Source: a virus. Taken from it: 44,425 nt of DNA. Below the pieces are notes generated by a model that searched no databases, had not been told where the DNA came from, and saw only the letters and a list, made by a program, of their open reading frames with translations. Both the position numbers and the translations under genes were made by a program. Each line of letters opens with the position of its first letter. Within the stretch, counting starts at the first letter, position 1. This document shows, piece by piece, positions 10,432 to 44,334 of this stretch. The DNA lies in IMG/VR virus record IMGVR_UViG_3300031910_000474, one strand, 5' to 3'.

Positions 10432-10782
10432 ATGTTCGGAAAAGGCGTCGACCCGAAAGTCGGCAAAAGCACGCAGTTCAAAAAAGGCTGCAATCATAAT
10501 CCGAAGGGCCTGCACGGCGAATCGGAAGATGCGCGCAAGGTTGCCTCGATCCGCAAGGTGCTGTTCGCGCTCGTGCCCGAAAAGGAAATGAAACGCCGCT
10601 GGAAGTTTTTCCTCGATAATTCGAACACCGATATAAAGTGGACCGCGTTCAAACTCGCGCTTTATTACATGTACGGACGCCCGCCGAAGCGCCCGATCAA
10701 TCCCGACGATCAGGCGGAATCGAACATGGGCGAGGCGTTCGACTTTTCGGATTTCCCGACGGGTAACACTCCGATCCAGTGA
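10432..10782 (+). CDS. Putative terminase small subunit
   Basis: Lies immediately upstream of, and is GTGA-coupled to, the large terminase. N-terminal TQFKKGCNHNPKG resembles the F.KGqSGNPkG box of DUF5681-type small terminases. Confidence 0.55.
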   Translation: MFGKGVDPKVGKSTQFKKGCNHNPKGLHGESEDARKVASIRKVLFALVPEKEMKRRWKFFLDNSNTDIKWTAFKLALYYMYGRPPKRPINPDDQAESNMGEAFDFSDFPTGNTPIQ

Positions 10783-14474: not shown

Positions 14475-14672
14475 ATGGCCGAGGAAAAATGGATGCAGCA
14501 CGTTTCGAAAGGCATCGAGCACCGCGGCACGAAAGGCGTCTTCCGCGAAGCGGCACACCGCGCCGGAATGAGTACACACGCTTACGCCGAAAAGAAAAAG
14601 CATTCTGCGGGTAAAACTGGCCAGCGTGCACGCCTCGCGCTGGCGTTTATGGGCGCAAAGCATGGCGGATGA
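14475..14672 (+). CDS. Hypothetical small basic protein (65 aa)
   Basis: Internal ATG 14475 (MAEEKWMQHVSKG). Confidence 0.45.
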   Translation: MAEEKWMQHVSKGIEHRGTKGVFREAAHRAGMSTHAYAEKKKHSAGKTGQRARLALAFMGAKHGG

Positions 14673-19648: not shown

Positions 19649-19853
19649 AGTTTTGCGTTCCCGGTCAATCCGATCGTGTCCCGAGTCACGTAAAACGGAA
19701 AACTCGGACCCGAGCAACGCAATGCAGCAAGTGTGACCAAAAACCCTTTTGGGTTACGGTTACATCACTGTCGTTCCACACTCAGCAGACCGATGCTGGC
19801 CGACTCAGGCGGCGAAACCGAAAACGACAAGTCCACAATGGAGCAGCCCAAGA

Positions 19854-21182
19854 ATGGCCGCTCTTAATGAAGCCGCAGTGCAAGCGGTCGAACTCGAAAC
19901 AGTACGGGAAGAAATTCCCGATTTGATGCTGACCGAGGACACGCTATACGCCCGGCTTAAAAAGGCGGGCCGCGTTCTGCCGATGTCGACTTCGACAGGC
20001 GGATCAAGCGGTTCGACTTACGATCCGACGGGCCGACCGTCGCTGCGCATTCCGATGCGCATCGCGGCAGGCTCAACGCACCAGCAATTCAGCGCAGACG
20101 GCGGCGACATGGGCCGTGGCACGGGAAGTTTCTATGCCGCGCAGTTCATTACGCCGATCAGTTTCTCCGAGGCGTGTGAGATCACCGCTCAGGCTCTGTG
20201 GTCTACTGAAACGGGCAAGAAATCACGCGTCCAGGTGAAGGCTTCCGAGTTCACGCATACTTTGGAGCAGTTCAAATCCAATTTAGACGCGGACCTGCAG
20301 GGCGACGGCAGCGGAACGCTCGCGACCGTCACGACTGCAAACTCGGGCACTGGATCTGCCGGACCTTCTTTTTCAAATATCATCTGCAGCAACGCAAACC
20401 AGTTTTACGACAATCAAGTCGTGCAAGTGTTTCCTTCGGTCGGCGGCGTAAGCCGCGGATCGTTCCAGATTTCCTACGTCGACGGCGTAGTGAATACGAT
20501 CTGGAGTGCGCAGGCTCTGCCTGCCGGAACCACGGCAAACGATTTGCTCGTCGTGAACGGCGCGCCGGGATCCGCTTCTTCTTCGCTGATGGGAGTCAAA
20601 GCCTATCAGGTGAACGGGAACTCGGGAACGCTGAACGGCCTCGCCCGTTCGAACTTCCCGGGGCGGCTTTCGACGCCCACGGTCAACTTGTCGGGCGCGG
20701 CGATCACCGTACCAATTGGCCGCCTCGTCGTCAGTAAGATCGCGCTCGCGCTCGGCAATGAATCGCCGGCGCTGGCCGATCTGATCTGGTATCTCAACGT
20801 TGATCAGGCTGCCGCGATCGAAAACCTCGCGATCCAAGTCGCGATCACAAATCAGCAGGAAATCAAAGGCGATTCTTCGCAGGACATGCTGAAAAAGTTC
20901 ACCCCTGCGACCTTCGTCGGTTACGACCTAGTGAAATCCGTGCACGCCACGCCGGGCCGTGTCGACGCCCTTTGCCTGAAATACTGGGGTATGGGCGAGC
21001 TCAAGGCGTCGGATCTTTACGACGTCAACGGGCAAACCGTTTTCCCGACCATTGGTGCCAGTGGCGGCATCAACGCGTCGACGGTGTTTTATTTCGTGAC
21101 ATCGTTCAACGTGTTCAACTCCAACGTGCGCGCTGGCGCTTTCATTCAGAACGCACAGATCCCCACGGGGTATTTCAGCTAG
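19854..21182 (+). CDS. Putative major capsid protein (442 aa)
   Basis: Internal ATG 19854 (MAALNEAAVQ). Preceded by a 200-bp structured spacer and followed by a strong hairpin. Size and position fit a capsid protein. Confidence 0.6.
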   Translation: MAALNEAAVQAVELETVREEIPDLMLTEDTLYARLKKAGRVLPMSTSTGGSSGSTYDPTGRPSLRIPMRIAAGSTHQQFSADGGDMGRGTGSFYAAQFITPISFSEACEITAQALWSTETGKKSRVQVKASEFTHTLEQFKSNLDADLQGDGSGTLATVTTANSGTGSAGPSFSNIICSNANQFYDNQVVQVFPSVGGVSRGSFQISYVDGVVNTIWSAQALPAGTTANDLLVVNGAPGSASSSLMGVKAYQVNGNSGTLNGLARSNFPGRLSTPTVNLSGAAITVPIGRLVVSKIALALGNESPALADLIWYLNVDQAAAIENLAIQVAITNQQEIKGDSSQDMLKKFTPATFVGYDLVKSVHATPGRVDALCLKYWGMGELKASDLYDVNGQTVFPTIGASGGINASTVFYFVTSFNVFNSNVRAGAFIQNAQIPTGYFS

Positions 21183-26680: not shown

Positions 26681-29600
26681 GTGGACAACGTTCTCGAAAC
26701 GAACGGCGTCCCGCTGACCGTTTTCGGCGGGGCAGTTCCCGAACTCGCACCCGAGGACCTGCCCGAAGGGGCCTCGCCGTTCAATCAAGATTGCGACTTT
26801 AACCCGGGATCCGTCTTCACACGCGGCGGTCGCACGAATCAGTATTATTACCAGAATCTTTTTTACGACAAGATCACGCAGTTCGCCCGCAACGCGCCCG
26901 GGCCGTTCTTCCCGAACGAAGTCGCGTGGATTGCGCCGCAGAACGTGCAGAACAACACGCCGGGCAGTTACGCCGTCGCGCAATTGAATCAGGGCGTGAA
27001 CATTTCGAACGTCGTGCAGTTCAAACAGGTGCAAATCAACACGACGACGACGACGTTTACCGCAGCCTTCGATAATCCAGTCGCGGCCGGTTCGGCGGTG
27101 TTCATCGCGCTGTTCATTCACGATTCGAACGGTTCGGTCGAGGGCGTGAACTGCACCGCCTGCGTCGACAACCGCGCGCAAACCGCCGATCACATCGTCG
27201 CGAACCTTTCAACGCCGAATAATAACGACATCTGTTTCTCGATCGGCTACAAGTCCGCACTCGGCGGAAATCAGTCGTACACCTTCACTCTTCAGACAAA
27301 CGCCGCTGGAACCCTCACCGCTTCAAACTACGCCTATTGTCTTTGTGAAATCATTGCCACGCAAAACGCGGCCAGTGCCGATCCGTTCGATCAAATGGTT
27401 GCCGAAGTTGTTTCAACCGTCACGGGATTCGGCGCGGGCCTCGTCACCACGGTGACGGCGAACGAGCTCATGCTGTCCGTCGTGCAATGCACCGGGGCGT
27501 CATGGAACGGCTTTTTGATGCCGTCGCAGTATTACTTCACGGGCGGCAATGAACCGCTGCAACGCGTTATTTCGACGATCGCAACACCGACTGGAAACTT
27601 TCAGGAACAGGCTTTGATCGGTCGGAATATCCCGACGAATCCAGGCGCTGCCGTACCGATCGCAAACTGTGGTCCCGTCACGTCCGTCACCGGGCTTGTG
27701 GTGTGGATCACGCTCAAGATGACGAACGCGAACGCCATCGGCACGCCCGGAATTCTGGCGCTCGATTCGGTCGTTGCCGGCTCAGGCAGCGGCGGCACCA
27801 CGATCAGCTTTCCCCCGATCACCACGGCGCACGACAACGAAATCATTTACCTGTTCGCCGCGTACACCACGAACTTCGGCTATCCCATCATTGCGCCGCC
27901 CGAAGGTTATGTCGGCTCGAGCCTGAACGGCGGAAACGGTTTCGTCGGCTGCATGTTTGCGCCGACTGCCGGAACCTATTCGCCGCCTGCCGCGACCGTG
28001 GCCGCTGGCGGCTCGAGTGGCGCAATCGCGGCGTCGATCAGTTTCAGCGTTGCAGGCCCCCTCGCGCAGCCTGCGTTGCTGCAGATGATCGGCAACGGAT
28101 CGAACATTCCGGCAGGGCCGCAATTGTTCACGTGGCCGAATCCCGTCACGCCGGGCAGCACGATCATCTGCATGTTCTCGAGCGGCTTCGCGACAGGCGG
28201 GTTTGCCGGGCCGTGCTCGGATACCGTCGGCGATGTTTTCACGCCCGTAGTGCAAAGCGCCGCCACGAGCACCGGAGTTCCGCCGCATAACTTCGTCGCC
28301 TTGACGATCAACATCTGCCAGAACACGATCGGCGGCAACACCGACATGACGGTGCAGGGCGGCGGCGCGGGCCTCGGCGGCGCGCAGTTCATCGCCATTG
28401 AGATCGCTCCGGGCGCGCTGGCCATTTCGCCGACGCCGCATTCCGAAATCCTCGCCGCGAGTAACTTCGGTTTTAACTTCCCGTTGACGCAGCCGATCCT
28501 CGGCATGGAGATCGAAGTTAGCGGGCACCAGTCGACGCTCGATCCGAGCGCCACGATCAGCGTCACCACAAACCAGACGGGATCCTCGACGGTCGTGACG
28601 CAAATGCCGGGATCGGACGGCACGATCACGATCGGCAATCCACTCAGCAATTTCGGGCTCGCGCTGACGCCCGCCATGCTGAACGATCCGGGGTTCACGG
28701 TCGAGATCCAGGCGAACGAGTCGAACCTGACGACCGCCGCGACGTTCGACCTGTACGCGGTACGTGTGCGCGTATTCGTCACGCCGTTTCCGCCGTGCAA
28801 TTTTGACTGGATCAAAACTTACGAGCAAACGGATGGCGAGATCGATACGCTCGTGCTCGACGCGAACGGCATTCTGTGGGACGAAGATGTGGACACGAAC
28901 CCCGGGGTGCTCAATTCCATTTTCACGACGATCCTAAAAAACACTTACGCGAAATCCGTCACGTTCGACGACATCGAATACATTGCGTTTTCGAACCTTG
29001 TGAACGGCACCGACGTGCCGCGGCAGTGGAACGGCACGAACCTCGACCGTATTTCGATGGTCGGCCCGGGCGCAAAGCCGAGCGCGAGCTCCGCAGGCAG
29101 CGGCTCGAACACGTTCGCAATTCAGAACACCACGCAGCAGTCGCCCGTTGAGATCCGCCGCATCGCGTGGGGCACGGTGAATTCGCCGAGCGTTTCAACT
29201 CCCGGCAATCTTCTCGTCGTGTTCGGGCAGGGCCGTCAGGTCAGCCCGCCCGCGCCGCCGCCCGACTATTCGACTTTGAAACCGTACACGCCGACCTTCG
29301 GCTCGGGCACGCATGTCGTGCTGTCGGGCATTCCGAGCCCGTTTCCGAAAAAAGGCGGCGGCACGCTGCCCTACAACATAAACGGAAACTATCTCGTCGG
29401 GACGGTGCAGTTCGGCAATGTCGGCGGAAACGAAAACTGCCCGACGTTCACGCTGCCCAGTCCGACGACTACATGGGCGTATTCGGACGACTTCGGCTCA
29501 GGTCAAGCGCCTGGAGTTCCGCCGCCGTCCGGCTGGTTTTACCAGTCGTGTATCGCAACCGTGACGATGCAGGTCGGGCTGCCGAACGTCGGCCCGGGAA

Positions 29601-32125
29601 GCCAGATCACGATCTCGGGCACGGGCGGCTCGCCGCCTTCCGGCTACGATGGCACATGGACCGTGCTGCAGGCCCCGAACGCGGTTCAAATGACGATCAA
29701 CTCGACGCAATTGACTGCGGCGACGTCGATCGCGACTTACTCGTTCACGCTGCTGCCGGGGTTCGTGAACCCGCCGCAGCCCGGGCAGGTCGTCACCATC
29801 ACGAATTGCGAGAATCAGGCCCCCGGGGATCCGAGCTCGCCTTTCAATGGCACCTTCACGATCGCCTCGGTCGGCGGCGGGCAGTTTACGGTCAGCATTG
29901 CCCACGCGACCGATATACCCCTCGCAACCGAGTCCGGCGAGGTGCCCACGCCGACGGCAGTCATTGCCGGAACGATCTTCACCTTCGACGCTGGGGTCAT
30001 AGTGGCGTCAGGGAGTCCCGTAAGCGGCGGAACTATCACGCAGCAGGGACAAGTCGCGACGGGGCCCCGGAAGGTGTGCTATTCGTTCCTGACGCGCTCA
30101 GGCTATATCACACAGCCGTCGCCGATCGCGATGACGAACATCACGACCTCGGCCGGCTCGATCACCGTGTCCGGGCTCGCCACGGGGCCGTCAAACGTCG
30201 TCGCCCGGATCGTGTCCTTCACCGGGGCAAACGGCGGCAATTTCTTCTATATCCCGCAGCCTGTATACGTTACGGCTGGCGGCGTCACCACGAAGAACGA
30301 TTCGACGATCGTGAACGACAACACGAGCACGAGCGCCACGTTCAGTTTTTCGGACGCTGTGCTGCTGTCCGCGACCGCGATCGACATCACGGGAAACAAC
30401 CTTTTCAACGACATCGAGCTCGGATCCTGCAGAGGAATCGTGACTTACGCCTCGCGGCTGTTCGCGTGGTCGGAGCAAAACAAGATCACGAACCTGCGGA
30501 ACTGGAGTTTCGACGGGGGAGTCGGCGGCACGACCGTCGGCGGCCTGTCGACCACGTACCCCCTCGGCTGGACACTCGACGCCACAAACGGCGCAGGCGG
30601 CTCGGTGTTCCAGAATTCCCAAGTGTTCGGCTGGTGCTATCAAATTCAAAACAATACGGGTTCGACGCAGGCGACTTACGGCATGCTGACGCAGCCCGCC
30701 TATCAGGACGAGTTCGGGGTTGCGATCGTGAACGCGTCCGTCGCCTATTCGGTGCGCCTGTGCGCGCTTGTGACGCCCGTGCCGCTTTCGGGAAACCTCG
30801 TGGTCGATCTGGTGTCGAATGGCGTTGCGGTCGGAACGTTTTCGCTGCCGCTTGCGAGCATGACGAACTTCATGCAGATATACACGGGCACGCTGCTAAC
30901 AAACGTGCTCGCGCCCGTGCCGCCGGATCTTACGCTGCGGATTTGGGCGCAGAACATCACGAACGGCACGACGATTCTGATCGATCGCATTGAACCGTTC
31001 GCAACGTTCAATCCCGTGCTGTCGACCGCCTTCAAAGCGTCTTACGCAAACAATCAGGAAGCCTTCGATCAGGTCACGGGCGTGTGCGGCCCGGCGCAGA
31101 ATTCGCAGCCGATCAACGGCGGCGCGGTGCTGTTCGATCTGCTGTACGCACTCAAGGAAAAATCATGGTATTCGACTTCGGACAATGGCGTCACCGAGCC
31201 GTACCAGTGGAACTGGAAAGAAGTTTCGAATAAAGTCGGCGCGATCGGGATCCACAGTTACGACTACGGCGAAGGCTGGATGGTCGCGGCGAACCGTCAG
31301 GGCGGGTATTTTTTCGAAGGCGGCGAGCCGATCAAGATCACGCAGGAAATTCAACCGCTGTGGGACATGATCAACTGGAACTACGGGTACACGATATGGA
31401 TGAGAAACGATCCCGAACAGAAAAGAATGACGATCGGAATTCCGATTCGGACGCCGAATGCCTACATGCCGGAATTCCCCGTGAACGCGAACCCGACGTC
31501 GCCGAACGTCGTCCTGATGTGCAACTATCGCGAATTGAACACGGGCGCGGCGCTCGCGCAGACAGGCCCGATCCGCAGCACGTATATGGGCCGACTGATG
31601 TCGCCGGAACCCGCGAGGAAATGGAGTTTCTGGAACATCTTATGTCCCTATTCGGATTACATTTCCCGGGCGAACGGACAGTGGCCGCAATTCTTCTGCA
31701 CCGGATACAATGACTCGAAAATTTTCCAGCTGCTCGCGTCGACGCTGAATGACGACGGCACAGCGATCAATTCGTTCTGGATCAGTTACGGGTTCGTGAA
31801 ACCGGAAGCCGCCGACGCAAAGGGCCTCGGGCTGTTCCGAGTCGAATTCCCATACTTCACCATGCTGTGCATCGGCAGCGGCACCGTGAATACTTATGTT
31901 TACCCCGAATCACCCCAAAATCGGCCTTATGTTCTCGAGTCGGAAATTCTCCCCGCCATCACGCAGGGCGATCTTGAGATCGGCGTCAACATCAAAGGCC
32001 AGCGGTTTTTTGTGAGAGTGGGAACGAACGCCGTCGGAAATTTCTTCCGGCTTTCGAAGATGGTCGTTCCACTCGTGACTGACAGCTGGAGTCCGATTCG
32101 CGGATGGAATCAAATTACCGCTTGA
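26681..32125 (+). CDS. Giant tail-associated protein (1814 aa)
   Basis: Single uninterrupted GTG-start ORF covering about 12% of the genome. T/G/S/V-rich and beta-like. The function is inferred only from size and position; it could be a nozzle or tail-tubular-B analog fused to adhesin-like regions. Confidence 0.6.
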   Translation: MDNVLETNGVPLTVFGGAVPELAPEDLPEGASPFNQDCDFNPGSVFTRGGRTNQYYYQNLFYDKITQFARNAPGPFFPNEVAWIAPQNVQNNTPGSYAVAQLNQGVNISNVVQFKQVQINTTTTTFTAAFDNPVAAGSAVFIALFIHDSNGSVEGVNCTACVDNRAQTADHIVANLSTPNNNDICFSIGYKSALGGNQSYTFTLQTNAAGTLTASNYAYCLCEIIATQNAASADPFDQMVAEVVSTVTGFGAGLVTTVTANELMLSVVQCTGASWNGFLMPSQYYFTGGNEPLQRVISTIATPTGNFQEQALIGRNIPTNPGAAVPIANCGPVTSVTGLVVWITLKMTNANAIGTPGILALDSVVAGSGSGGTTISFPPITTAHDNEIIYLFAAYTTNFGYPIIAPPEGYVGSSLNGGNGFVGCMFAPTAGTYSPPAATVAAGGSSGAIAASISFSVAGPLAQPALLQMIGNGSNIPAGPQLFTWPNPVTPGSTIICMFSSGFATGGFAGPCSDTVGDVFTPVVQSAATSTGVPPHNFVALTINICQNTIGGNTDMTVQGGGAGLGGAQFIAIEIAPGALAISPTPHSEILAASNFGFNFPLTQPILGMEIEVSGHQSTLDPSATISVTTNQTGSSTVVTQMPGSDGTITIGNPLSNFGLALTPAMLNDPGFTVEIQANESNLTTAATFDLYAVRVRVFVTPFPPCNFDWIKTYEQTDGEIDTLVLDANGILWDEDVDTNPGVLNSIFTTILKNTYAKSVTFDDIEYIAFSNLVNGTDVPRQWNGTNLDRISMVGPGAKPSASSAGSGSNTFAIQNTTQQSPVEIRRIAWGTVNSPSVSTPGNLLVVFGQGRQVSPPAPPPDYSTLKPYTPTFGSGTHVVLSGIPSPFPKKGGGTLPYNINGNYLVGTVQFGNVGGNENCPTFTLPSPTTTWAYSDDFGSGQAPGVPPPSGWFYQSCIATVTMQVGLPNVGPGSQITISGTGGSPPSGYDGTWTVLQAPNAVQMTINSTQLTAATSIATYSFTLLPGFVNPPQPGQVVTITNCENQAPGDPSSPFNGTFTIASVGGGQFTVSIAHATDIPLATESGEVPTPTAVIAGTIFTFDAGVIVASGSPVSGGTITQQGQVATGPRKVCYSFLTRSGYITQPSPIAMTNITTSAGSITVSGLATGPSNVVARIVSFTGANGGNFFYIPQPVYVTAGGVTTKNDSTIVNDNTSTSATFSFSDAVLLSATAIDITGNNLFNDIELGSCRGIVTYASRLFAWSEQNKITNLRNWSFDGGVGGTTVGGLSTTYPLGWTLDATNGAGGSVFQNSQVFGWCYQIQNNTGSTQATYGMLTQPAYQDEFGVAIVNASVAYSVRLCALVTPVPLSGNLVVDLVSNGVAVGTFSLPLASMTNFMQIYTGTLLTNVLAPVPPDLTLRIWAQNITNGTTILIDRIEPFATFNPVLSTAFKASYANNQEAFDQVTGVCGPAQNSQPINGGAVLFDLLYALKEKSWYSTSDNGVTEPYQWNWKEVSNKVGAIGIHSYDYGEGWMVAANRQGGYFFEGGEPIKITQEIQPLWDMINWNYGYTIWMRNDPEQKRMTIGIPIRTPNAYMPEFPVNANPTSPNVVLMCNYRELNTGAALAQTGPIRSTYMGRLMSPEPARKWSFWNILCPYSDYISRANGQWPQFFCTGYNDSKIFQLLASTLNDDGTAINSFWISYGFVKPEAADAKGLGLFRVEFPYFTMLCIGSGTVNTYVYPESPQNRPYVLESEILPAITQGDLEIGVNIKGQRFFVRVGTNAVGNFFRLSKMVVPLVTDSWSPIRGWNQITA

Positions 32126-33084: not shown

Positions 33085-33810
33085 ATGTTCAACGAACCGC
33101 ATCGCAGACAACCGCGCACAACTCGCCGGGCGATTCACGATCCGATCGACGGCGTGACCGAGATCGCCGGGATCCGCGCCGCGACAGGCGCGGCTTCGAA
33201 TGCCGCAGCAACCGCAGCGGCCACGGGCGCAGGATACGGCGAACAGGCGGGCGGCATCGGCGGAATGCTCGTGCCGTATCTCGAGAATCAGATCACGAAC
33301 CCGATGGGATTCGGGCCTGCGGCGACGAACGCCATGCTCGTCGAGGGACTCGAGGGCGCAGGCGGTGCGGCATCGAGCCTCGCCGGGGAAGCCGGGCTGC
33401 GTGCCGCCCGCTCGCGCAATGTCGGCGGCGCGACCGGGATCCTCGATGAACTTTCCCGCGAGAAAATGCGCACCTCGGCAGGCGTCGGCCTGGATGTCGC
33501 AACGAAGAACGCGCTATTGCAGCAGCAGCAGCGATCGCAGGCGCAGGGGCAACTCGAAAACCTGTACGGCACCGACGTCGGCGCGCAATTGAAGGCGCAG
33601 TCGCTTGTGCCCGAGGACATCAATGCATGGACGAATGCCAGCAAATCGGGCTGGTTGCAGAACGTCGAAGGAATGATGGGCGCGGTCGGCGGCCTCGCAG
33701 GCGGCCTCGGCGGCGGCCCGGGAATCGCAAAACTTTTTAACCTCGGCGGCGGCGGAAATCCTTACGCCGGGCAGACGACTTTCGGCGGAACTGGCGGCGG
33801 GGCGGCTTAA
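33085..33810 (+). CDS. Gly/Ala-rich putative internal virion protein (241 aa)
   Basis: G/A-rich with hydrophobic stretches. Precedes the two large internal-protein-like ORFs. Confidence 0.5.
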   Translation: MFNEPHRRQPRTTRRAIHDPIDGVTEIAGIRAATGAASNAAATAAATGAGYGEQAGGIGGMLVPYLENQITNPMGFGPAATNAMLVEGLEGAGGAASSLAGEAGLRAARSRNVGGATGILDELSREKMRTSAGVGLDVATKNALLQQQQRSQAQGQLENLYGTDVGAQLKAQSLVPEDINAWTNASKSGWLQNVEGMMGAVGGLAGGLGGGPGIAKLFNLGGGGNPYAGQTTFGGTGGGAA

Positions 33811-33812
33811 AA

Positions 33813-35573
33813 ATGGCAGACGAACTTGTCCGCAAACCGGACGACGACGAAGAAGACGAAGAACGGCGATCACGCTACGCCACGGGCGAAGCGGAACCTG
33901 CGCGACCTTTGCCGCCCGTCAGTTTCGGCGAGCCGGACACGGCGGGCGCAATGCCCTCGATCGAACAGCGCCGTCCGCTCGAGGGCACGAGTCCATATAC
34001 GCGCAGCGTGATTCGCGGCCTTGAGGAGCAGCAGGCGCGCCATGAAGCGCCCGTGCACGGCGTGTTTCCGAAGATCGGACGCGTTGCACGGGACATCGGC
34101 GAAGTCGCGGGCAGTGCCGTTGCCCCGGGCGTCATGATGCAGATCCCGGGCACACGTCTGAACACCGCAGCGCAATTGGCCGGGCAGCGTGAACTTCTCG
34201 AGGGACAACTCGGGCGTGAAGCGCGCACCGAAGAAGCCGCCGAACGATCGCGCATCGCGCAGGAACAGGTCGACGTTGAGCGGCAGAAAGCGGGCTTGCC
34301 AAAACTGATCGAAACCCCGGGCCTCGAACGCCGCTGGACAGACGAGCAGGGAAACGAGCACCTCGAGATGCCAGTTGTGACGCCGGGACAGGGCGCGGAA
34401 TATCGCGAGCTCGGCCCGACGATGCTGCAGCCGCGTGCTGCGCCGGGAACGATTCAGCCCGTCGCAACCGGACCCGCACCGCCAGCGGGCGCGCCTGCCG
34501 CAGCACCGCCAGAACGCAAATACACTTACGGGGCACCGAAGCAACTGACGCCCGAGCAGCAATTGAAAGAAACTTTCATGGGGTACTGGGGGATCCCTGA
34601 ACAGAATCGCACGCCGGAACAGCAGCAATTCGTGAACGAGCACATCGGACAGTTCGGCAAGGAAGCGCCGATTACGCAGCCCGATATGCGGCAGAAGAAC
34701 GACTCGATGAACGACGACTACGCCCGGGCGCAGAAGGCGCTCGGAAACGATGCGCCGAAACCGAATCTGATCCAGGCGAACGATAATTACGACACTGCGG
34801 AGAAAAAGCGCACCGACTACGCCGACAAACTTTACAAGGCGTACGAGTCGAAGAAGCAGCAGGACGACCGTCGCGGGCTGCGCGACATTCAGACCGAGCT
34901 CGCGAAAGATAAACTCGACAAGGAACGGAACGATGCGTCGGCGCAGTCCGATCAGGCTTATTACGGCTTGTACGCGCAAAAAAATTATCAGAATCGGATC
35001 CATACGTGGCACACGAGTGGAAACTTCGGCAAGGATTCCGGCCTGATTCACGAGCAACTCGGCGAGCACGGCGGCGGCGGCATGAACCTCGGACCATTCG
35101 CGGGCCTGCTCGCATCGACGCCGCAGGGCGCGGTCGCGGCGGTCGGGGCCGACATGCTGCTCGGTTCGGTGCGCAATACGCTGAACGGCTACCTCGACAC
35201 GGCGAAAAAGGCGGGCATCTCGGATCCCGGTTATCAGGCGATGACCGCTTACGCGAACGCGATCGTCGGGCGCATGCAGTACGAACTCGGTGCCGCCGGC
35301 GTGAAGGCAAGCGCGCTGCGCATGCGTGACGTGATGCAAAAAGTTTTGATGACCGTACCGCCGCCGAACACCCCGCCCAGCGAGTTCGATCGCGCCTTCA
35401 ACCAATACTATAAAACGATGGAGCAGGCCGTCGGACGCCGGAAGTTCGGCACGCCGAAGGATTACATCGCGCCGACTTTTGAAAGCGTGTTTCCGCCCGA
35501 GCAGCCTGCAGCTGCAGCGCCCGCCGCAGGCGGCAAAGGAAAATGGAATCCGGTCACGGGCAGGTACGAATAA
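33813..35573 (+). CDS. Putative internal virion / ejection protein (586 aa)
   Basis: Acidic N-terminus, Pro-rich linker with PGTIQPV, and a hydrophobic segment MNLGPFAGLLASTPQGAVAAVGADMLLG. Confidence 0.5.
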   Translation: MADELVRKPDDDEEDEERRSRYATGEAEPARPLPPVSFGEPDTAGAMPSIEQRRPLEGTSPYTRSVIRGLEEQQARHEAPVHGVFPKIGRVARDIGEVAGSAVAPGVMMQIPGTRLNTAAQLAGQRELLEGQLGREARTEEAAERSRIAQEQVDVERQKAGLPKLIETPGLERRWTDEQGNEHLEMPVVTPGQGAEYRELGPTMLQPRAAPGTIQPVATGPAPPAGAPAAAPPERKYTYGAPKQLTPEQQLKETFMGYWGIPEQNRTPEQQQFVNEHIGQFGKEAPITQPDMRQKNDSMNDDYARAQKALGNDAPKPNLIQANDNYDTAEKKRTDYADKLYKAYESKKQQDDRRGLRDIQTELAKDKLDKERNDASAQSDQAYYGLYAQKNYQNRIHTWHTSGNFGKDSGLIHEQLGEHGGGGMNLGPFAGLLASTPQGAVAAVGADMLLGSVRNTLNGYLDTAKKAGISDPGYQAMTAYANAIVGRMQYELGAAGVKASALRMRDVMQKVLMTVPPPNTPPSEFDRAFNQYYKTMEQAVGRRKFGTPKDYIAPTFESVFPPEQPAAAAPAAGGKGKWNPVTGRYE

Positions 35574-38500
35574 ATGGCAAACGGTGACGATCTCGAAACC
35601 GTACAGCACGAAACGCTCGGCGCGCTGAAGTTTCCGCGTGACATGCCCGCAGCCGAACGGCAGGAAGCGATCGATCGCGTGATCCGCCAGAATCACGGGC
35701 TGCCTGAGGGCACGGACCTGCACGCAAAGGAAGTGCCCTCAGGCGTCGATCGCGACCGATATATCAACGCGGCGTATGAGGCGAGCGGCGAAATGAAAGG
35801 CGCAGCCGCACCGACATCGGCGCGCAACGTGTTTGCAAAGCCGGAAGGAAAAACGGCAAGCGAACAAGCAGGCGAAGCAGTCAAACGAGGATGGCGGGCG
35901 CTGATCACACCGCCGCCGCCACGGCTTGCGGCTCAAGGCCCGCCTCGAGAAACGATGAGCGCGCAACCGACGTTCTGGCAGGGAGTCGAAAACTTGGTGG
36001 GGCAAGGGCCCGGCCAGATGGAATCCCGCGCGCCTGCTTACGAGAATATGACGCCGGAAGGCCGCGCCGAGCATCCGATCCTGTCCCGTGTCGGCGACGT
36101 GACACGCGGCGCGAAAGAATACGGCGGCATGCTGCTGAACCTTGGCGGGCTGCTCGCCGGGCCTGAGTACGAAGAGTTTCCGAACGCAGCGCCTCGGCCT
36201 GCGGCCCGTGCTCCCGGCTCGCAGATGCCAGCGGTGCCGCGCACGACGCTGCGCGACATCGGCAATGTGCTCGAGCAGGAAATGAACCGGCCGCCGCAGC
36301 CGCGTGTCGAAGCACGGTTTGATGAAGCGGCACACGAACTTTTCGGGCAGTCTTACGAGAATCTGAATGCGCAGCAAAAGCAGGCCGTCGCACGGCGTGC
36401 CGTCCCGGCGCCGACCGAACGCGGAACGATCCAGCCTGTCGAGCGCCGCGCTGGACCTGCAGGGCCGCCGCCCGCTGGCCGCACCGAGCAGCGCGGCATG
36501 CCTTGGGTTCAGGAAACTTTCGGACGCGCTGCGCCGGGCGCGGAGTCCGACATTGATCTCGAACTGCGAGCTCCCCCTGCGCCCGGAACGATCGAACCTG
36601 TCGGCACGGCACCGCCGCCGCCGAAACCAGCAGCAGCACCGCAAGGCGGCAGAGTTGTCCGTGGCGGCAAGGTTGTACCCGAAGCAGGCGCGCCGCCGCC
36701 CGGCCCGGGGTTCACGCGGGAAACAAAAGGCGGCGCGGAGTGGGCCGTTGATCCAACCGGGAAGTACCGCATTTCAGTTACGCCGCAGATGAGCGAAGCA
36801 GACATCGGCGCGAAATTGAACGAACAGATCAAGGCGCAGCAGGCATTGCAGGCGCGACTGAAGCAACCGCCGCCGCAGCCTGGAACACCTGAACGACCGC
36901 CGCCGACTGCCGCTGCCGAAGAAGCGGATCCACTTAAACGTGAATTCCCTGACGCTGGGGTTCGGCGCTTCGCCCGGGCGAACGGGCCCGAGTTCGTGCG
37001 CGCCACGGAAAGCGAACCGGAAGCGCGGCAGGCCGTTCACGATTTGACGAACGTCGAAGTCCGGCAGGCGGCGATCAACGCCGGGATCGACGTGGGCGCA
37101 AAGCATGTCGGGCAGAAGATCGGCCTCGGCCCGGAGCAGGTTTCGCGGCAGGAACTGATCGCTGAAATGCTGAACCGGGGGATCCCGGCGCGGCAGATTC
37201 CCGATCTCGCAAAGCCGCAGACAACGGAATTCTCGGCGGGCGAACTGAAGCAGGGCGACACGTTCGTCGACGATAAAGGCGAGCCGCGCCGCGTTGTCGA
37301 CATTGAAGACGGCAAGATCAAAACTGCCGACGGCACCACGCGGACGTATGAAGGCTCGATCGAATCGCAGACCGATCTGAACTCGCCGAAGGCGCAACTC
37401 GCCCGCGGCGGAAAGTTTATCGCGCACGAAGCGGCAGGCGTTCACGAGGATGATCTGCCACGGGACGCGAAGGTGCCCGACGTGCGCTGGCAGGAACAGG
37501 ACCTGCAGGACACGGCGAAGATGGTCGACGAGAAATCGATCGCAAAGGATTACGGCCCTCGGAAAAAGGGCGTGCCGTTTTCCGTTTATCAGTCGTACAT
37601 TCCGATGGAAGATATGCCGACGCCGAGGATCGTCGAAGAGGAAGAAGAAGATCCCGAACTCCGCAATTTCGGCTGGCGCGAAGACTATGTGCCTTTCCGC
37701 AGCAGCCCGCCGATCAAAGTCCGCATCACCCCGGAAGGAAAACTCGAGATCCTTGATGGCGCGCACCGCACGGCGTTATGGGAAGACATGAACATGACGC
37801 ACGCGCCGGCATGGGTTGTCGACGAACGCGGAAGCGGAATCGAGAATCTCGCGGAAGAAGAAAAAGGCGAGCGCGGCTTTGCGCCTGGAACTGAGATCCG
37901 TTACGCAGGCGAGAAGCCTGAACACATGGAAGAGTTTTTTACGGCGGTGCAGAACACGCCCGGCGCGGCAATGAATCGCGACGGCTCGATCACGCTCGAT
38001 CTCGGTCGGCGGCAGTTGCATGAACAGATCGGGCAGCGTGCGATCCGCAGCGGGGTGTTCTTCTCGCCGGAAGCGAATTCACCTTTCGGTCGCGGGTACA
38101 CGGGGCGCACGGGATACGGCGGCCCGATGCGGATCACCGAGGAGCAGGTGACGTTCCGCAAGCCGATCGTCGCAAAGGGCGCGACAGGCGGCAAGGTTCC
38201 CGAGCGCGTGTACGACGAACTGAAAGGAAAAGGCGCGTATCAAGAGATGCGTCAGGACGTAATCGATCGCGTGGTCGGCTGGCAACTCACGCCCGAACAA
38301 AAGATCCAGCGCGTCGGCGACGTACTCGAACGGTACGGCAGTCGGCGAGATTTCGCCGACGACATCGTGCGTCACAGCCGACTCAGTAATCAGTTGCCTT
38401 ACGCCGTGCAGGAACACATCGTCGCGCAGGCGGTGCGTGACGCTGGATACGACGCTGCGGTCGGCTATTCGAAAACGAAAGGACAGTGGCGGCTCTCGGA

Positions 38501-38942
38501 AGTTTTCGATGTGAAGCGGCAGGCATATCCTACAGGCAGCACGCGTGCTTCACGCGAACCGTGGGATCTCGGAAAGCAGAACGATGTGCCGTCCGAGGAA
38601 GGCTACGTGTACCATGCAACGAATGCCGACCGTCTGCAGGAAATCGCGGACAGTGGAAGCCTGAAAACACACCGCCCCGACTACGGAACAGAACAGGATC
38701 GATGGCCGGACGGTTCGAGTGACAAGCGCAGTTACTTCACACGGCGAGCCGACCACGCGTGGCAATTCGCGCCCGAAGAAGGCCGTGGCGTGATCGTGCG
38801 CATGAAGGAAAACCCGAAGTTTCATTCAGTCGAATCGACGGGCGACGTGTACGCGACACAAACGATCAACTCACGGCATCTCGAGTATTTGGACGCGAGC
38901 GGAACGTGGCGTCCGGTTCAGGATCTGCGCGGCGCGAAATAG
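35574..38942 (+). CDS. Large multidomain (polyvalent-like) virion protein with a ParB-like domain (1122 aa)
   Basis: PPIKVRITPEGKLEILDGAHRTALW matches the ParB N-terminal DGxHR box (nt ~37690-37830). Pro-rich linkers contain GTI(Q/E)PV twice. The C-terminal ~110 aa begin GYVYHATNADRLQEIADSGSL. Confidence 0.6.
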   Translation: MANGDDLETVQHETLGALKFPRDMPAAERQEAIDRVIRQNHGLPEGTDLHAKEVPSGVDRDRYINAAYEASGEMKGAAAPTSARNVFAKPEGKTASEQAGEAVKRGWRALITPPPPRLAAQGPPRETMSAQPTFWQGVENLVGQGPGQMESRAPAYENMTPEGRAEHPILSRVGDVTRGAKEYGGMLLNLGGLLAGPEYEEFPNAAPRPAARAPGSQMPAVPRTTLRDIGNVLEQEMNRPPQPRVEARFDEAAHELFGQSYENLNAQQKQAVARRAVPAPTERGTIQPVERRAGPAGPPPAGRTEQRGMPWVQETFGRAAPGAESDIDLELRAPPAPGTIEPVGTAPPPPKPAAAPQGGRVVRGGKVVPEAGAPPPGPGFTRETKGGAEWAVDPTGKYRISVTPQMSEADIGAKLNEQIKAQQALQARLKQPPPQPGTPERPPPTAAAEEADPLKREFPDAGVRRFARANGPEFVRATESEPEARQAVHDLTNVEVRQAAINAGIDVGAKHVGQKIGLGPEQVSRQELIAEMLNRGIPARQIPDLAKPQTTEFSAGELKQGDTFVDDKGEPRRVVDIEDGKIKTADGTTRTYEGSIESQTDLNSPKAQLARGGKFIAHEAAGVHEDDLPRDAKVPDVRWQEQDLQDTAKMVDEKSIAKDYGPRKKGVPFSVYQSYIPMEDMPTPRIVEEEEEDPELRNFGWREDYVPFRSSPPIKVRITPEGKLEILDGAHRTALWEDMNMTHAPAWVVDERGSGIENLAEEEKGERGFAPGTEIRYAGEKPEHMEEFFTAVQNTPGAAMNRDGSITLDLGRRQLHEQIGQRAIRSGVFFSPEANSPFGRGYTGRTGYGGPMRITEEQVTFRKPIVAKGATGGKVPERVYDELKGKGAYQEMRQDVIDRVVGWQLTPEQKIQRVGDVLERYGSRRDFADDIVRHSRLSNQLPYAVQEHIVAQAVRDAGYDAAVGYSKTKGQWRLSEVFDVKRQAYPTGSTRASREPWDLGKQNDVPSEEGYVYHATNADRLQEIADSGSLKTHRPDYGTEQDRWPDGSSDKRSYFTRRADHAWQFAPEEGRGVIVRMKENPKFHSVESTGDVYATQTINSRHLEYLDASGTWRPVQDLRGAK

Positions 38943-39052: not shown

Positions 39053-39328
39053 ATGCAAATCGGCGATCCGATCAAAGTAACGGGAACGGTGAAGGACATC
39101 GTGCACGCAAAGGACACGAACATCGTGTCGATACTCATGCAGTCGGACGATCTTCCGGGCGCGCCGGGCCGCGAATTCTGGTTTCCAGAGGGACAGGTGC
39201 AGGACAATCCGCCCCCGCAGCCTGCGACTGCGACTGCGACTGCGCCCGCAACGGAGCATGCGGCAAAGCATGCGGCTGAGCCTGCGCCAAAGCACACGCC
39301 AGCGCCGCACGTCGCGCACGGTTCGTGA
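39053..39328 (+). CDS. Hypothetical protein with a P/A/H-rich tail (91 aa)
   Basis: GGAGGA RBS and ATG 39053. This is the last plus-strand gene before the convergent terminator. Confidence 0.55.
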   Translation: MQIGDPIKVTGTVKDIVHAKDTNIVSILMQSDDLPGAPGREFWFPEGQVQDNPPPQPATATATAPATEHAAKHAAEPAPKHTPAPHVAHGS

Positions 39329-39366
39329 TAGAGTCGCCGTAATCTACGTTCTATCTTTTTTGCTCT

Positions 39367-39408
39367 AAGGGCCCCGTCGTCATGGCGACTGCGGGGCCTT
39401 TTTTATTT
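39367..39408 (+). terminator. Rho-independent terminator of the rightward late operon
   Basis: GGCCCCG (39370-39376) pairs with CGGGGCC (39392-39398), followed by TTTTTTATTT. Lies at the convergence point with the leftward operon. Confidence 0.75.
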
Positions 39409-40567
39409 CGAGGTATGCTTCGATGAACGCGACGGCTTGCGGCGCACAGCACGCATTCCCCGCTCCGCGCAGGACGCCCACTCGTCCGGCAGTCCGAGCA
39501 GCCAAAGGGAAAATCTCGGGTTCAGCAGGAACGAGCCGGAAGCGTCCGTCGGTGCAGCGGTGCTGCCGAGCTCCGTGCCAGAAAGATGCGCGAGGCGCGG
39601 CAATTGGTCGAGCCGCTTGCGATCCTCGGTTTGCTGCGTCATTCCGGGCGTGTCTTTCCAGTCGCGGCTTGCGGGCGTCGTCCAGGCTGCGACTTGATTG
39701 TGCAGGCCGTCCGGTTTCCCCCGATGCGCCCCGATATATTCCGAATCTTCCGCTCGTGGTGTCGCCCAACTGGCCGCCCTCGTCAGCGAGTTGTATTCCC
39801 CGCTCGCCCGCGTCCCGTTGTTTGGGTCGTCGCAGTTCGGCGTCGGCCACCCTGCCAACTGTGCTGTTTGTCCCACGGTCAATCCGAATCCGTTGTTGTG
39901 ATATTTTTCCCGACTTACGGCCCGGCGCTGTTTCCACGTCGTATCGCTGTCGTTTTGCGGGCCCGCGTTCGGCGTCGGCCACCCAGTCAAAAGCGCCTTG
40001 TCGTTCAGGCAGAACGTTCTCCCCTGTCCGCGTTGCGGTTTCCCGCCCCGGTCGTCCCTGCCCGTTGCTGTCGGCCACGAAGTACAATCGCTGGCGGATG
40101 TGCGGCGCGCCGACGCCCGCTGCGCAGGTATCGAGCGCCCCGACGGCGTAACCCTCGTTTTCCAGATCAGCCGAAACAGTGTCGAACCACGCGAGTCCGT
40201 CTTTTCCCGATACTTGTTCGCCAAAAATGACGTCAGGGCGAAACTCTCTAATGAGCCGGAACCATGCAGGCCAAAGGTGACGGTGATCGCTAAAGCCTTC
40301 CCGGTTCCCGCTTGCACTGAAACCTTGGCAGGGACAGGATCCACTCCACACGGGAGAATCATCTGGCCATCCAGCCGTTCTAAGGGCGTAACTCCACACG
40401 CCGATCCCGGCGAAGAAATGGTGCTGCGTGTAGCCTTTGAGATCCGCGACGGTGACTTCTTCGATCGATCTTTCATCGATTTCTCCCGGGCATATAAGTT
40501 TAGCGGCGACGAGCTCACGAAGCCACGCCGCCGCAAAGGGATCGTTTTCGTTGAAATAGGCGGTCAC
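39380..40567 (-). CDS. DNA (cytosine-5) methyltransferase. The reading frame is uncertain downstream of about 40070 (see findings).
   Basis: YFNENDPFAAAWLRELV, FFAGIGVWS, SCPCQGFS (PCQ catalytic motif), FGEQV and GAPHIRQRLYF. The likely start is GTG 40567, in a GTGA overlap with the upstream stop. The target-recognition part reads better in the overlapping ORF 39403..40536. Confidence 0.75.
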   Translation of the reverse strand: MTAYFNENDPFAAAWLRELVAAKLICPGEIDERSIEEVTVADLKGYTQHHFFAGIGVWSYALRTAGWPDDSPVWSGSCPCQGFSASGNREGFSDHRHLWPAWFRLIREFRPDVIFGEQVSGKDGLAWFDTVSADLENEGYAVGALDTCAAGVGAPHIRQRLYFVADSNGQGRPGRETATRTGENVLPERQGAFDWVADAERGPAKRQRYDVETAPGRKSGKISQQRIRIDRGTNSTVGRVADAELRRPKQRDAGERGIQLADEGGQLGDTTSGRFGIYRGASGETGRPAQSSRSLDDARKPRLERHARNDAANRGSQAARPIAAPRASFWHGARQHRCTDGRFRLVPAEPEIFPLAARTAGRVGVLRGAGNACCAPQAVAFIEAYLEIKKAPQSP

Positions 40568-40884
40568 AGGTCGAACGCCGCCATGCAGTTCGTCGAGCAC
40601 CAGTACATTCCGAAGCGCGGAAAATTGCATTCGCAATCGCGCTTCACGATCTTGTCGCACTGCTGACAGGTGTGCGAATGCGGCTCGCCATGCAGGCCGA
40701 GCGCGTCACGCGCAATTCCGACGGCCTGCGTTTCGGACTCTTCTTCGATGTCCGAAATCTTTGTGAGCGCCTTGCGGTACTCTTCAATGACGCGCAGGTA
40801 CTTCGACACGTCACCTTCAAGCGCCTCGATGCGCACTTCCTGTTTGCGGATCAGTCCGCGTGCTGCGCTGATTCCGCCGCTCAT
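40564..40884 (-). CDS. Coiled-coil protein with a C-terminal FCS/MYM-like zinc finger (106 aa)
   Basis: ATG 40884 in an ATGA overlap. HTCQQCDK...CEC...YWCSTNCMAAF. Confidence 0.6.
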   Translation of the reverse strand: MSGGISAARGLIRKQEVRIEALEGDVSKYLRVIEEYRKALTKISDIEEESETQAVGIARDALGLHGEPHSHTCQQCDKIVKRDCECNFPRFGMYWCSTNCMAAFDL

Positions 40885-43221: not shown

Positions 43222-44334
43222 ATGCCCGAAAAAACGGCCCTCGAGAAGCCGCAATCTATTTTCTCGATGCTCGACTCCGCAGACTTCAAAGGGAAACTTG
43301 CGAAGGCGCTGCCGGAAACGCTGAAAGTCGAACGCGTGGTGCAACTGGCGTACACGCTGCTTCGCAAGAATCCGACGCTCGCGAAGTGTTCGCCCCTATC
43401 GATCCTCGCCTCGCTCGCCGACTCTTCGGCGCTCGGGTTCGAGATCGACGATGTGCTCGGCCTAGCATATCTCGTTCCGTTCAAAGGTGAATGCAAACTG
43501 ATCGTCGGTTATCGCGGCTTTGCCGAGCTCATGTATCGCACGGGCCTCGTGAGTTCGATCTCGACCGAGATCGTGCGTGATACGGATCGGTTTTCGTTTT
43601 CTCTCGGAACGAAGCGGCAACTCGTGCACATTCCCGCCGGAACGCCGGCAAAAGACGGCCCGGCGAACTGGCGCGGCGCTTACGCTGCGGTGCAGTTCAT
43701 CACGGGCATGACCGACTTCGAATACCTCGACAAGGCGCACATTGAATCGGCGCGCAATCGTTCGAACGGCTGGCGGGCCTTCGAACGCGGTGACGCGAAG
43801 GATAACCCGTGGCACACGGACCCCGAAGAGATGTGGAAGAAGACGCCGATCCGGCGCATGGCGAAACGCATGCCGCGTTCGGTTGTCGACAAGCGCGGCG
43901 ATCTCATGCGGGCCGCCATGCTCGACGAATACGGCGAGAAACCCGGGCTGCTCATTCCAACCGATACAGGCTGGCAGGTGAACCCCGAACCCGAGCTCCC
44001 TGCCGCAGCCGAGCCGATCGCCCCGACGCTCGAGGCGCAATTGCAGGAATCGATCGAAGACGTCGAGCAGCGCAAGAAAAAGGTAGCCGGCAAGAACAAA
44101 AAGATCGCGCCGAAGGCTTCCGCTGACGTTCCGAAGGCGCAGATCCCGGCGAAGATCGACGACCCGTACATCACGCAGAAACAGCAAACCGACTTATACA
44201 ATTCGGCGGCGCAGGCGGGCTGGACACTCGACGAGTTCATCGAATACGTGAAGAAAAACTATAAATCGATTCGCGAGGTGCGGCAGTCGCAGTACGCGGC
44301 GCTGCTCGCGAAGGCGAAAGGAAACGCACGCTGA
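43222..44334 (+). CDS. recT: RecT-family single-strand annealing protein
   Basis: AGGAGA RBS. LAYLVPFKGECKLIVGYRGFAELMYRTGLV..I....V...D.F......H.....W.GAY.......G...F..L....I...R..S...NPW...PEEMWKKTPIRRMAKRMP. It has a long K/A/Q-rich C-terminal extension. Confidence 0.9.
   Translation: MPEKTALEKPQSIFSMLDSADFKGKLAKALPETLKVERVVQLAYTLLRKNPTLAKCSPLSILASLADSSALGFEIDDVLGLAYLVPFKGECKLIVGYRGFAELMYRTGLVSSISTEIVRDTDRFSFSLGTKRQLVHIPAGTPAKDGPANWRGAYAAVQFITGMTDFEYLDKAHIESARNRSNGWRAFERGDAKDNPWHTDPEEMWKKTPIRRMAKRMPRSVVDKRGDLMRAAMLDEYGEKPGLLIPTDTGWQVNPEPELPAAAEPIAPTLEAQLQESIEDVEQRKKKVAGKNKKIAPKASADVPKAQIPAKIDDPYITQKQQTDLYNSAAQAGWTLDEFIEYVKKNYKSIREVRQSQYAALLAKAKGNAR

Follow-up and report, generated by a model that had tools for sequence, protein, structure and literature searches.

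Multidomain, virion-associated effectors that combine ADP-ribosyltransferase (ART) and ParB domains are a published theme in phage biology. Polyvalent proteins carry H-Y-D ARTs and ParB-like domains and are encoded beside virion genes (Iyer et al. 2017, PMC5512222). A further precedent is Alt of phage T4, an ART that is packaged, injected and modifies host proteins such as RNA polymerase (PMC5512222). In podoviruses, the ejection proteins (gp14, gp15 and gp16 in T7; gp7, gp20 and gp16 in P22) are encoded by three adjacent genes, small, medium and large, in the late structural operon. Homologues of these proteins are usually recognised by size and synteny only (431-982 amino acids (aa) for gp15 and 609-1337 aa for gp16), domain swapping is documented among them, and membrane-spanning segments are said to be universal in the gp14- and gp16-like members (PMC8954989). 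Here we examine a gene of an uncultured soil phage, located at 35574-38942 on the + strand of IMG/VR virus record IMGVR_UViG_3300031910_000474, the whole 44,425-nucleotide sequence of which is called the window below. Its 1122-aa product is, in our assessment, probably a polyvalent effector of a short-tailed phage, packaged and injected with an ART cargo that acts on the host.

Domain architecture of the 1122-aa protein

The protein was partitioned into six parts by local BLAST and jackhmmer against all retrieved sequences (P-numbers denote retrieved homologous proteins, and L-numbers retrieved contigs or records). The gene, its parts and the key residues are as follows.

35574-38942, + strand: whole gene, 1122 aa and stop, ATG start; last large gene of the virion operon in the list of open reading frames (ORFs)
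35574-35795, + strand: conserved N-terminus (Nt), aa 1-74, common to the orthologous last genes of related phages (P0005, P0007, P0009)
35796-36875, + strand: Pro/Ala/Gly-rich, probably flexible linker, aa 75-434, aligning only with the closest homologues P0002-P0004 and P0012
36876-37424, + strand: M435 module, aa 435-617, conserved in the lineage and present in 11 other large proteins (673-1504 aa) with differing C-terminal parts
37425-37880, + strand: putative ParB/Srx-like module, aa 618-769, core 'IPMEDMP ... PPIKVRITPEGKLEILDGAHR ... APAWVVD'
37755-37769, + strand: DGAHR motif, aa 728-732 (Arg732), inside the ParB-like module
37917-38549, + strand: Mid domain, aa 782-992, alpha/beta with a helical insert of ~85 aa; widespread, without a curated family
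38583-38930, + strand: predicted ART-fold domain (ARTc), aa 1004-1119, with an H-Y-D/E triad
38613-38615 (H1014), 38733-38735 (Y1054), 38832-38834 (E1087) and 38844-38846 (D1091), + strand: ARTc residues

The 1122-aa ORF is a real gene and not a high-GC chance ORF, because an identical protein is present in public assemblies (102 blocks, JGI and ENA metagenome samples included) and each segment has protein-level homologues (12 for the N-terminal half, 336 for aa 782-992 and, for aa 1004-1119, 472 cluster representatives). Contigs with the identical protein reach ~45 kb, and the source looks like an abundant, uncultured phage lineage. The original prediction, made from the letters and ORF list of the window, had described this ORF as four parts: an N-terminal region broken by Pro-rich linkers, a ParB-like block, a further globular region and a possibly ART-like C-terminus. 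The ORF matches exactly, with its ATG and 1122 aa, and all four parts were borne out. Every peptide string quoted in that description was located (PPIKVRITPEGKLEILDGAHRTALW at aa 712-736, SGVFFSPEANSPFGRGYTGRTGYGGPMRI at aa 826-854, GYVYHATNADRLQEIADSGSLK at aa 1010-1031, KRSYFTRR at aa 1051-1058 and VESTGDVY at aa 1086-1093), and the Pro-rich linkers are evident across aa 75-434, where Pro, Ala and Gly make up as many as 25 of 50 consecutive residues.

The C-terminal ART-fold domain

An exhaustive HMMER search with a 7-sequence profile of ARTc over 1.84 billion cluster representatives (50% identity) yielded 472 proteins at E <=0.001, including 304 at E <=1e-30. Among 166 copies in retrieved proteins, 48 are found in proteins of less than 260 aa, while 80 are internal, 27 C-terminal and 11 N-terminal, and the largest ARTc-bearing protein has 3253 aa. 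One standalone copy, P0138, is on a 224-kb contig of unannotated genes. In PHROGs, only aa 1002-1116 of the 1122-aa protein were matched, by phrog_3147 (unknown function, E 6e-20). ARTc was also the sole part to be matched by tblastn in cultured phages, in 193 records, all of them mycobacteriophages, of which the one inspected is a Bixzunavirus; tblastn of ARTc against plasmids found nothing.

The mycobacteriophage match is the C-terminus (114 aa) of a 575-aa protein; its identity to aa 1005-1117 is 40% (E 5e-22). In the cluster C (Bixzunavirus) phage Ngannou this protein is gp79 (L001:3621-5345), and it resembles the 1122-aa protein in having the same ARTc end and an upstream ParB-type motif, 'EGNHR', in the same order. 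It differs in being without the Mid domain and the common N-terminal half, and in its setting, a 154-kb myovirus in which the gene lies upstream of transfer RNAs (tRNAs) and the portal gene. An hhalign comparison of the ParB-like family with gp79 aligned no more than the GNHR stretch of 24 residues (probability 7%; E 0.005, as a single comparison). The 575-aa protein is annotated as 'hypothetical' or as 'ParB-like nuclease domain protein', and the ART part is absent from the annotations seen.

An AlphaFold2 model of ARTc from the 7-sequence alignment (predicted local distance difference test (pLDDT) 80.9; predicted template modelling score (pTM) 0.78) contains one strand-helix unit followed by seven further strands. 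With Foldseek against the PDB, the top ~30 matches of this model were almost all ART folds and included TreTu (8s2n, E 0.016), EcPltA, many entries of Tpt1/KptA, CC0527, which we take to be ART-like, pertussis toxin S1, CARDS toxin, PARP16 and DarT. Sequence profiles led to the same group. A Pfam scan of 53 small family members, at E up to 1, returned sub-threshold matches to Tox-ART-HYD1, PTS_2-RNA (Tpt1/KptA), TreTu_C and DarT, and the family profile run against PDB sequences found DarT (E 0.23) and KptA (E 0.27), aligned on 'YvYHATn..l.dI..sGkL', the strand-1-His-helix-1 motif. Tox-ART-HYD1 (PF15633) was matched by three of the 53 members; the window's own sequence reached E 0.039 and 15 bits against a gathering score of 25, over the His-to-Tyr part only. 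Membership of Tox-ART-HYD1 was rejected because the match falls below the gathering score.

Conservation was counted in a MAFFT alignment of 156 ARTc copies. Twelve residues are invariant in all of them (Y1013, H1014, T1039, Q1041, W1044, P1045, D1046, R1052, Y1054, F1065, R1076 and D1091), and E1087 is retained in 149. In the model, H1014 ends strand 1, Y1054 is in strand 2 and D1091 starts strand 5 (model strands 17-23, 59-62 and 97-100). ARTc is like the H-Y-[EDQ] ARTs (Tox-ART-HYD1/HYD2, DarT, Tpt1/KptA and TreTu) in its predicted fold, its 'YHAT..l..I..G.L' beta1-His-alpha1 motif, the Tyr on strand 2 and the acidic residue at strand 5. It differs from them in that its matches are sub-threshold and that it has two invariant arginines and a signature loop of its own, T-[DE]-Q-x-x-W-P-D-G (aa 1039-1047), which is family-specific and lies after the His strand and before the Tyr strand.

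These results support a predicted ART-fold domain with an H-Y-D triad and a nearby Glu, the proximity of the residues being read from strand order; polyvalent-protein ARTs with the H-Y-D configuration have been described (Iyer et al. 2017, PMC5512222). The earlier suggestion of an ART- or Tpt1-like C-terminus, offered as speculative, is strengthened by the ART-dominated Foldseek list, the sub-threshold ART matches in Pfam and the conserved H, Y and D/E on matching strands. Its H/Y/E spacing needs one amendment: His and Tyr stand, and are invariant, but the stricter acidic residue is D1091 in 'TGD' rather than E1087. The window's own copy would be expected to be active, because it retains every invariant residue. 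As in T4 Alt, the ART in the model proposed for the 1122-aa protein would travel in the particle and reach the cell together with the DNA; Alt differs in being a single-function protein of a myovirus head and a member of the R-S-E clade, whereas ARTc has an H-Y-D/E centre.

Assignment of ARTc to Pfam ART-PolyVal (PF18760) was also rejected, with no match from the whole protein or from the 53 members at E up to 1. A phmmer search with the ART-PolyVal segment of P0065, meant to gather an ART-PolyVal alignment, found only itself among the fetched proteins. ARTc represents a large unnamed ART-fold family that no Pfam or NCBIfam model covers and that PHROGs lists under 'unknown function'.

The ParB/Srx-like module

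The ParB-like module spans ~150 aa, and its relatives are 48-67% identical to the window's copy. We aligned 11 full-length copies and saw two more that were partial or near-duplicate. Invariant features include 'IPMED.P' and 'PIKV....G...I.DG.HR...W....PAWV.D', and the G, H and R of the D728-G-A-H-R732 motif are the same in 11 of 11 copies. R732, the Arg that defines the ParB/Srx superfamily pocket, is retained. In Pfam, four of the 11 members gave sub-threshold matches to ParB_N (PF02195), of which the best scored 20.3 bits (E 5.2e-4) where the cut-off is 26.3; one member touches DndB. Run against the PDB, the family profile found two sequences only, both of them Noc (E 0.27), the nucleoid occlusion protein of the ParB family. 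The Noc alignment spans the whole N-domain, from 'IP' through 'ILDGnHR' to 'PAWV'. The profile of an earlier 5-sequence alignment had found nothing in the PDB.

From these patterns, we consider it likely that aa 618-769 belong to the ParB/Srx superfamily. The ParB N-terminal DGxHR block of the original prediction is upheld by the sub-threshold ParB_N matches of its relatives and the Noc-only PDB matches, a weak but specific signal, whereas the window's own sequence does not match Pfam ParB_N at E up to 10. Two narrower assignments were rejected: membership of the ParB_N family itself, which is below threshold, and of the DdrB-like ParB family, as neither the protein nor the 11-member family matched DdrB-ParB in Pfam. 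Compared with the DdrB-like ParB of P1 and the N-domains of Noc and Spo0J, the module has the same 'PI.V....G...I.DG.HR' core, where a strand-strand-helix is predicted at low confidence, and the same conserved Arg. Unlike them, it comes without a ParA partner, a helix-turn-helix or a dimerisation domain, and it has an extra conserved N-terminal part, 'HE.vG.H.DD.PR…QDLQD', specific to this module.

The Mid domain

Mid has 336 relatives at E <=0.01, mostly proteins of 300-400 aa without a Pfam domain, and no tblastn match in 50,697 cultured phage genomes. Its model (pLDDT >90) comprises six strands and a five-helix insert of ~85 aa. Foldseek gave no significant PDB neighbour; the top match was 6kyf, which is AcrIF11, an ADP-ribosyltransferase anti-CRISPR (E 0.016, probability 0.77). 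In BFVD, Mid matched an unnamed 767-aa protein (E 5e-4) and a 'PolyVal ADP-ribosyltransferase' (E 0.12). In P0065, Mid is followed by a Pfam ART-PolyVal domain (E 8e-8), so that an ART sits in the slot held by ARTc in the 1122-aa protein. It is possible, and to us doubtful, that Mid is itself a very derived ART. An hhalign comparison of the ARTc and Mid families gave nothing usable, and Pfam and PDB profile scans of the Mid family returned chance-level matches only (EzrA, dynein light chain and Trigger_N). The loop 'KGATGGK' was considered as a Walker A motif and rejected, since it is a residue too short in its spacing and its Lys falls outside the nearly invariant (>=90%) positions. Mid is an unexplored, widespread domain with a confident predicted fold, no clear structural neighbour and no curated family.

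Module linkage and probable membership of the polyvalent proteins

The three cargo modules (ParB-like, Mid and ARTc) belong to separate homologue families with no mutual relation detected, and they recur in shuffled pairs in 14 proteins. In the retrieved set, the orders from N- to C-terminus are as follows.

Nt, M435, ParB-like, Mid, ARTc: 1 protein, the present one only
Mid, ParB-like: 4 proteins
ARTc, ParB-like: 4 proteins
ParB-like, ARTc: 4 proteins
Mid, ARTc: 2 proteins

Among 24 large ARTc-bearing proteins (934-3253 aa), companion domains include ART-PolyVal in four and ParB_N in two, together with GNAT, LPD38, PBECR5, PhageMin_Tail, GGDEF, Amidase_2, 2',5'-RNA ligase and Acb1. Companions of the ART-PolyVal, ParB_N, LPD38 and PBECR5 type are signature constituents of polyvalent proteins (PMC5512222). 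This recurrence of ARTc in very large proteins, beside ART-PolyVal, ParB_N, LPD38, PBECR5, GNAT and Acb1, agrees with the polyvalent architecture proposed at the outset. The 1122-aa protein has the marks of the group: several effector-type domains, their recurrence elsewhere, and virion-gene neighbours in a portal-terminase phage. As in other polyvalent proteins, one polypeptide holds several unrelated effector-type domains that are also found alone and in very large proteins, with an H-Y-D ART and a ParB-superfamily domain, which are among the commonest constituents, in the predicted set. It differs from them in that its cargo domains reach no Pfam model from that work (ART-PolyVal, ParB_N), that its N-terminal half is a lineage-specific scaffold without a MuF, RNA polymerase or metallopeptidase anchor, and that the full five-module order is found only here.

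The coupling of modules bears on what the cargo might do. One explanation keeps the same architecture and has the ParB-like and ART pair act on nucleic acid, either protecting the entering genome or stalling the host chromosome. In this scheme, DNA binding or nicking would fall to the ParB-like domain, and ADP-ribosylation of DNA or RNA to the ART, in the manner of DarT (thymidine in single-stranded DNA) or Tpt1/KptA (phosphorylated ends). The joint occurrence of both modules in 8 further proteins, in both orders, suggests a functional couple; Tpt1/KptA and DarT rank with the closest neighbours of ARTc in structure and in sequence, the invariant R1052 and R1076 could bind phosphate, and ParB domains of polyvalent proteins are predicted to be NTP (nucleoside triphosphate)-regulated DNases (PMC5512222). 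However, the protein-targeting TreTu and pertussis-like toxins score equally well or better, 145 of 155 sampled ARTc family members are without the ParB-like module, and the polyvalent H-Y-D ARTs were grouped by their describers with protein-modifying clades (PMC5512222). The fold alone does not reveal the target, and we regard action of the pair on nucleic acid as unlikely.

Position in the virion operon and candidate ejection proteins

The 1122-aa gene closes a block of three genes, bounded by the following features.

33085-35573, + strand: upstream pair, genes of 241 aa (Gly-rich C-terminus) and 586 aa
39009-39042, + strand: terminator-like hairpin with a 9-bp stem, 7 G-C pairs and a T-rich tail, ~70 nucleotides past the stop

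The start codon of the 1122-aa gene touches the stop of the 586-aa gene (GAA TAA ATG). The gene is the last large one of a long + strand operon, as predicted, because the hairpin follows its stop and opposite-strand genes come after it. The small, medium and large order and the sizes of the 241/586/1122-aa trio are conserved in related phages. L009 has the gene order 1800-199-219-597-969 aa; in L010 it is 125-213-593-1336 aa, with genes for holin (GTA_holin_3TM) and lysozyme coming next. Because of this position, the trio is a candidate ejection-protein set. The ejected internal protein of the original prediction thus draws its support from position, size and synteny. The last genes of relatives keep Nt and/or M435 and diverge after M435, with at least three cargo types, and the alternative cargo of P0002 and P0004 also adjoins ParB-like and ARTc modules in P0141, P0142 and P0149. 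M435 (aa 435-617) may be a delivery or scaffold part. The neighbours of P0013 have nothing in common with this window.

The likeness to the ejection proteins of T7 and P22 lies in the three adjacent genes of rising size in a late structural operon, with sizes inside the published gp15 and gp16 ranges. The 1122-aa protein differs in having no sequence or profile similarity to podovirus ejection proteins and in lacking both a peptidoglycan hydrolase domain and a clear membrane-spanning segment, and T7 and P22 are without a counterpart of the ParB-like and ART cargo.

Several results weigh against a packaged and injected effector with an ART cargo. Pfam, NCBIfam and PDB sequence searches with the whole 1122-aa protein found nothing and reached no curated cut-off. 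There was no structural match in PHROG or Pfam for the 1122-aa, 241-aa or 586-aa proteins, nor in a PHROG scan of eight large relatives that share M435. A crude Kyte-Doolittle test found no strongly hydrophobic, membrane-spanning segment in the 1122-aa protein; the best 17-aa mean was 0.61, and at most 1.19 in the neighbours, with only weakly hydrophobic stretches rich in Gly and Ala. The Foldseek E-values of ARTc all lie between 0.016 and 1, with TM-scores of 0.40-0.47, and the list is moderately persuasive through its consistency, not through single E-values. An hhalign comparison of ARTc with ART-PolyVal, by way of P0065, found nothing (probability 0.2%). In the ParB-like module, DGAHR occurs only in the window's copy, the other 10 relatives having DGNHR, and AlphaFold predicts the strand-strand-helix at the motif with a low pLDDT of 30-67. 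Finally, a standalone 368-aa Mid protein (L006:3114-4220) is encoded directly upstream of terminase genes, after RusA and DUF5856 genes.

Some of these results would suit a protein that is not packaged at all, and that acts late in the cytoplasm as a multi-enzyme in DNA handling, host shut-off or phage exclusion, encoded at the operon end. The missing structural-protein matches and membrane-spanning segment fit this explanation, as do the standalone Mid genes beside replication and terminase genes in another phage and the mycobacteriophage homologue, whose gene precedes the portal gene in a neighbourhood of tRNAs and small genes of early type. We nevertheless find it very unlikely. The gene is translationally coupled to its upstream neighbour within a conserved block of 200/220-240/590/1000-1300 aa, and this block comes after a tail-fibre-like gene and, in one relative, before lysis genes. 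A constant N-terminal half combined with changing C-terminal cargo is what delivered proteins show, and the domain partners are typical of virion-embedded polyvalent proteins.

The low scores could also mean that the enzyme likenesses are spurious or the domains catalytically dead, leaving a purely structural component of an ejectosome or tail. No fold or profile match reaches the customary thresholds of significance, and the motif DGAHR deviates from the family's DGNHR. Against this, 12 polar or aromatic residues of ARTc are invariant in 156 divergent copies, with H-Y-D on the expected strands; three independent routes (structure, Pfam profiles and PDB sequences) converge on one superfamily; and the modules also occur as small standalone proteins, unlike structural parts. 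We give a purely structural role hardly any credence.

Proposed mechanism

In the effector reading that we favour, the front half of the protein (aa 1-617), with its long Pro-rich linkers, would serve for entry into the virion and exit through the tail with the DNA, and by position and size it would correspond to the largest podovirus ejection protein. The back half (aa 618-1122) would be an exchangeable cargo of three modules. By family precedent, the ParB/Srx-like domain would bind a nucleotide and DNA, act on DNA in an NTP-dependent manner and perhaps nick it. ARTc, with its intact His-Tyr-Asp/Glu centre, would draw on nicotinamide adenine dinucleotide (NAD+) for the ADP-ribosylation of a host macromolecule during the initial minutes of infection, in the service of host takeover or of blunting host defences. 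Packaging and injection, the use of NAD+ and the target are parts of this model that we infer from architecture and position.

As to the target of ARTc, we would place about half of the weight on a protein, about a third on a nucleic acid, and the remainder on another target or none. Protein-modifying toxins, and DarT and Tpt1/KptA, are equally close to ARTc structurally in Foldseek, and a DNA target is kept open because ARTc is recurrently coupled to a ParB-like module. It is distinctly unlikely, in our estimate, that the ParB-like module, Mid and ARTc form one virion-delivered, DNA-acting unit, in which an NTP-gated ParB clamp or nickase positions the H-Y-D ART on DNA ends or bases. If true, such a unit would shield the entering genome from exonucleases or restriction, or freeze the host chromosome, and would represent a virion-borne system of nucleic-acid ADP-ribosylation built from three families without a curated database description.

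Other features of the window

The same + strand operon holds the virion genes upstream, and further features lie to either side of the 1122-aa gene.

10779-12266, + strand: large terminase
14626-17193, + strand: portal (855-aa portal-like protein)
19749-21182, + strand: major capsid protein
26681-32125, + strand: 1814-aa fibre-like protein, rich in Thr/Ser/Gly/Asn
34446-34463: GTI[QE]PV motif in the 586-aa protein
36423-36440 and 36585-36602: GTI[QE]PV motifs in the 1122-aa protein
39053-39328, + strand: small ORF
39363-39400: second GC-rich inverted repeat, aagggccccgtcgtcatggcgactgcggggcctt, read by eye, between the small + strand ORF and the convergent methyltransferase gene
39380-40660, - strand: C5 cytosine DNA methyltransferase gene (Pfam DNA_methylase E 2.5e-14; phrog_363 E 9e-70)
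43222-44334: 370-aa ORF, matching a gene called RecT (PF03837) in contigs L002-L005

The 1814-aa protein was considered as a tape-measure protein and rejected, being rich in Thr/Ser/Gly/Asn and fibre-like. A short-tailed phage is plausible because no tape-measure-like protein was recognised among the window proteins scanned or read. A tblastn search of 50,697 cultured phage records, at E up to 1e-3, matched neither the portal nor the 1814-aa protein, and the morphotype is therefore not tied to a known phage. Unlike in the relative L010, no lysis genes were noticed directly past the 1122-aa gene.

A six-frame translation of the window contains just three copies of the motif GTI[QE]PV, each in Pro-rich surroundings ('APGTIQPVATGP', 'ERGTIQPVERRAGP' and 'APGTIEPVGTAPPP'). 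By a rough estimate the chance expectation is ~0.01, and P0002-P0004, which are close homologues, retain the motif. It may serve two neighbouring proteins of the virion operon as a common site of docking or processing.

Genome G+C is ~60%, and ~62% in the region of the 586-aa and 1122-aa genes. Long antisense ORFs of up to 617 aa lie opposite these two genes (33870-35723 on the - strand and others); at ~62% G+C they are expected by chance, and they are without support as genes. The inverted repeat at 39363-39400 may be a bidirectional terminator. The methyltransferase gene is called as 357 and 313 aa in otherwise near-identical contigs (L002:13850-15093, L003:13830-14903 and L004:12579-13520 were compared), and in one near-identical contig its place is taken by + strand calls of 242 and 82 aa. 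These length differences may reflect a variable spot or differing gene calls.

Significance

Against the published theme of multidomain virion-associated effectors, four points are new here. Three cargo families fall outside curated models; one of these is a large ART-fold family, known in culture only from mycobacteriophage proteins whose annotation names the ParB part; the order in which the modules are joined is shuffled; and the N-terminal half that carries them is conserved in the lineage and occupies the ejection-protein position. The mycobacteriophage homologue is experimentally accessible, through growth on M. smegmatis. The findings extend the published theme and do not overturn current concepts; a constant front half with swapped effector cargo links the podovirus ejectosome literature with the idea of polyvalent proteins.

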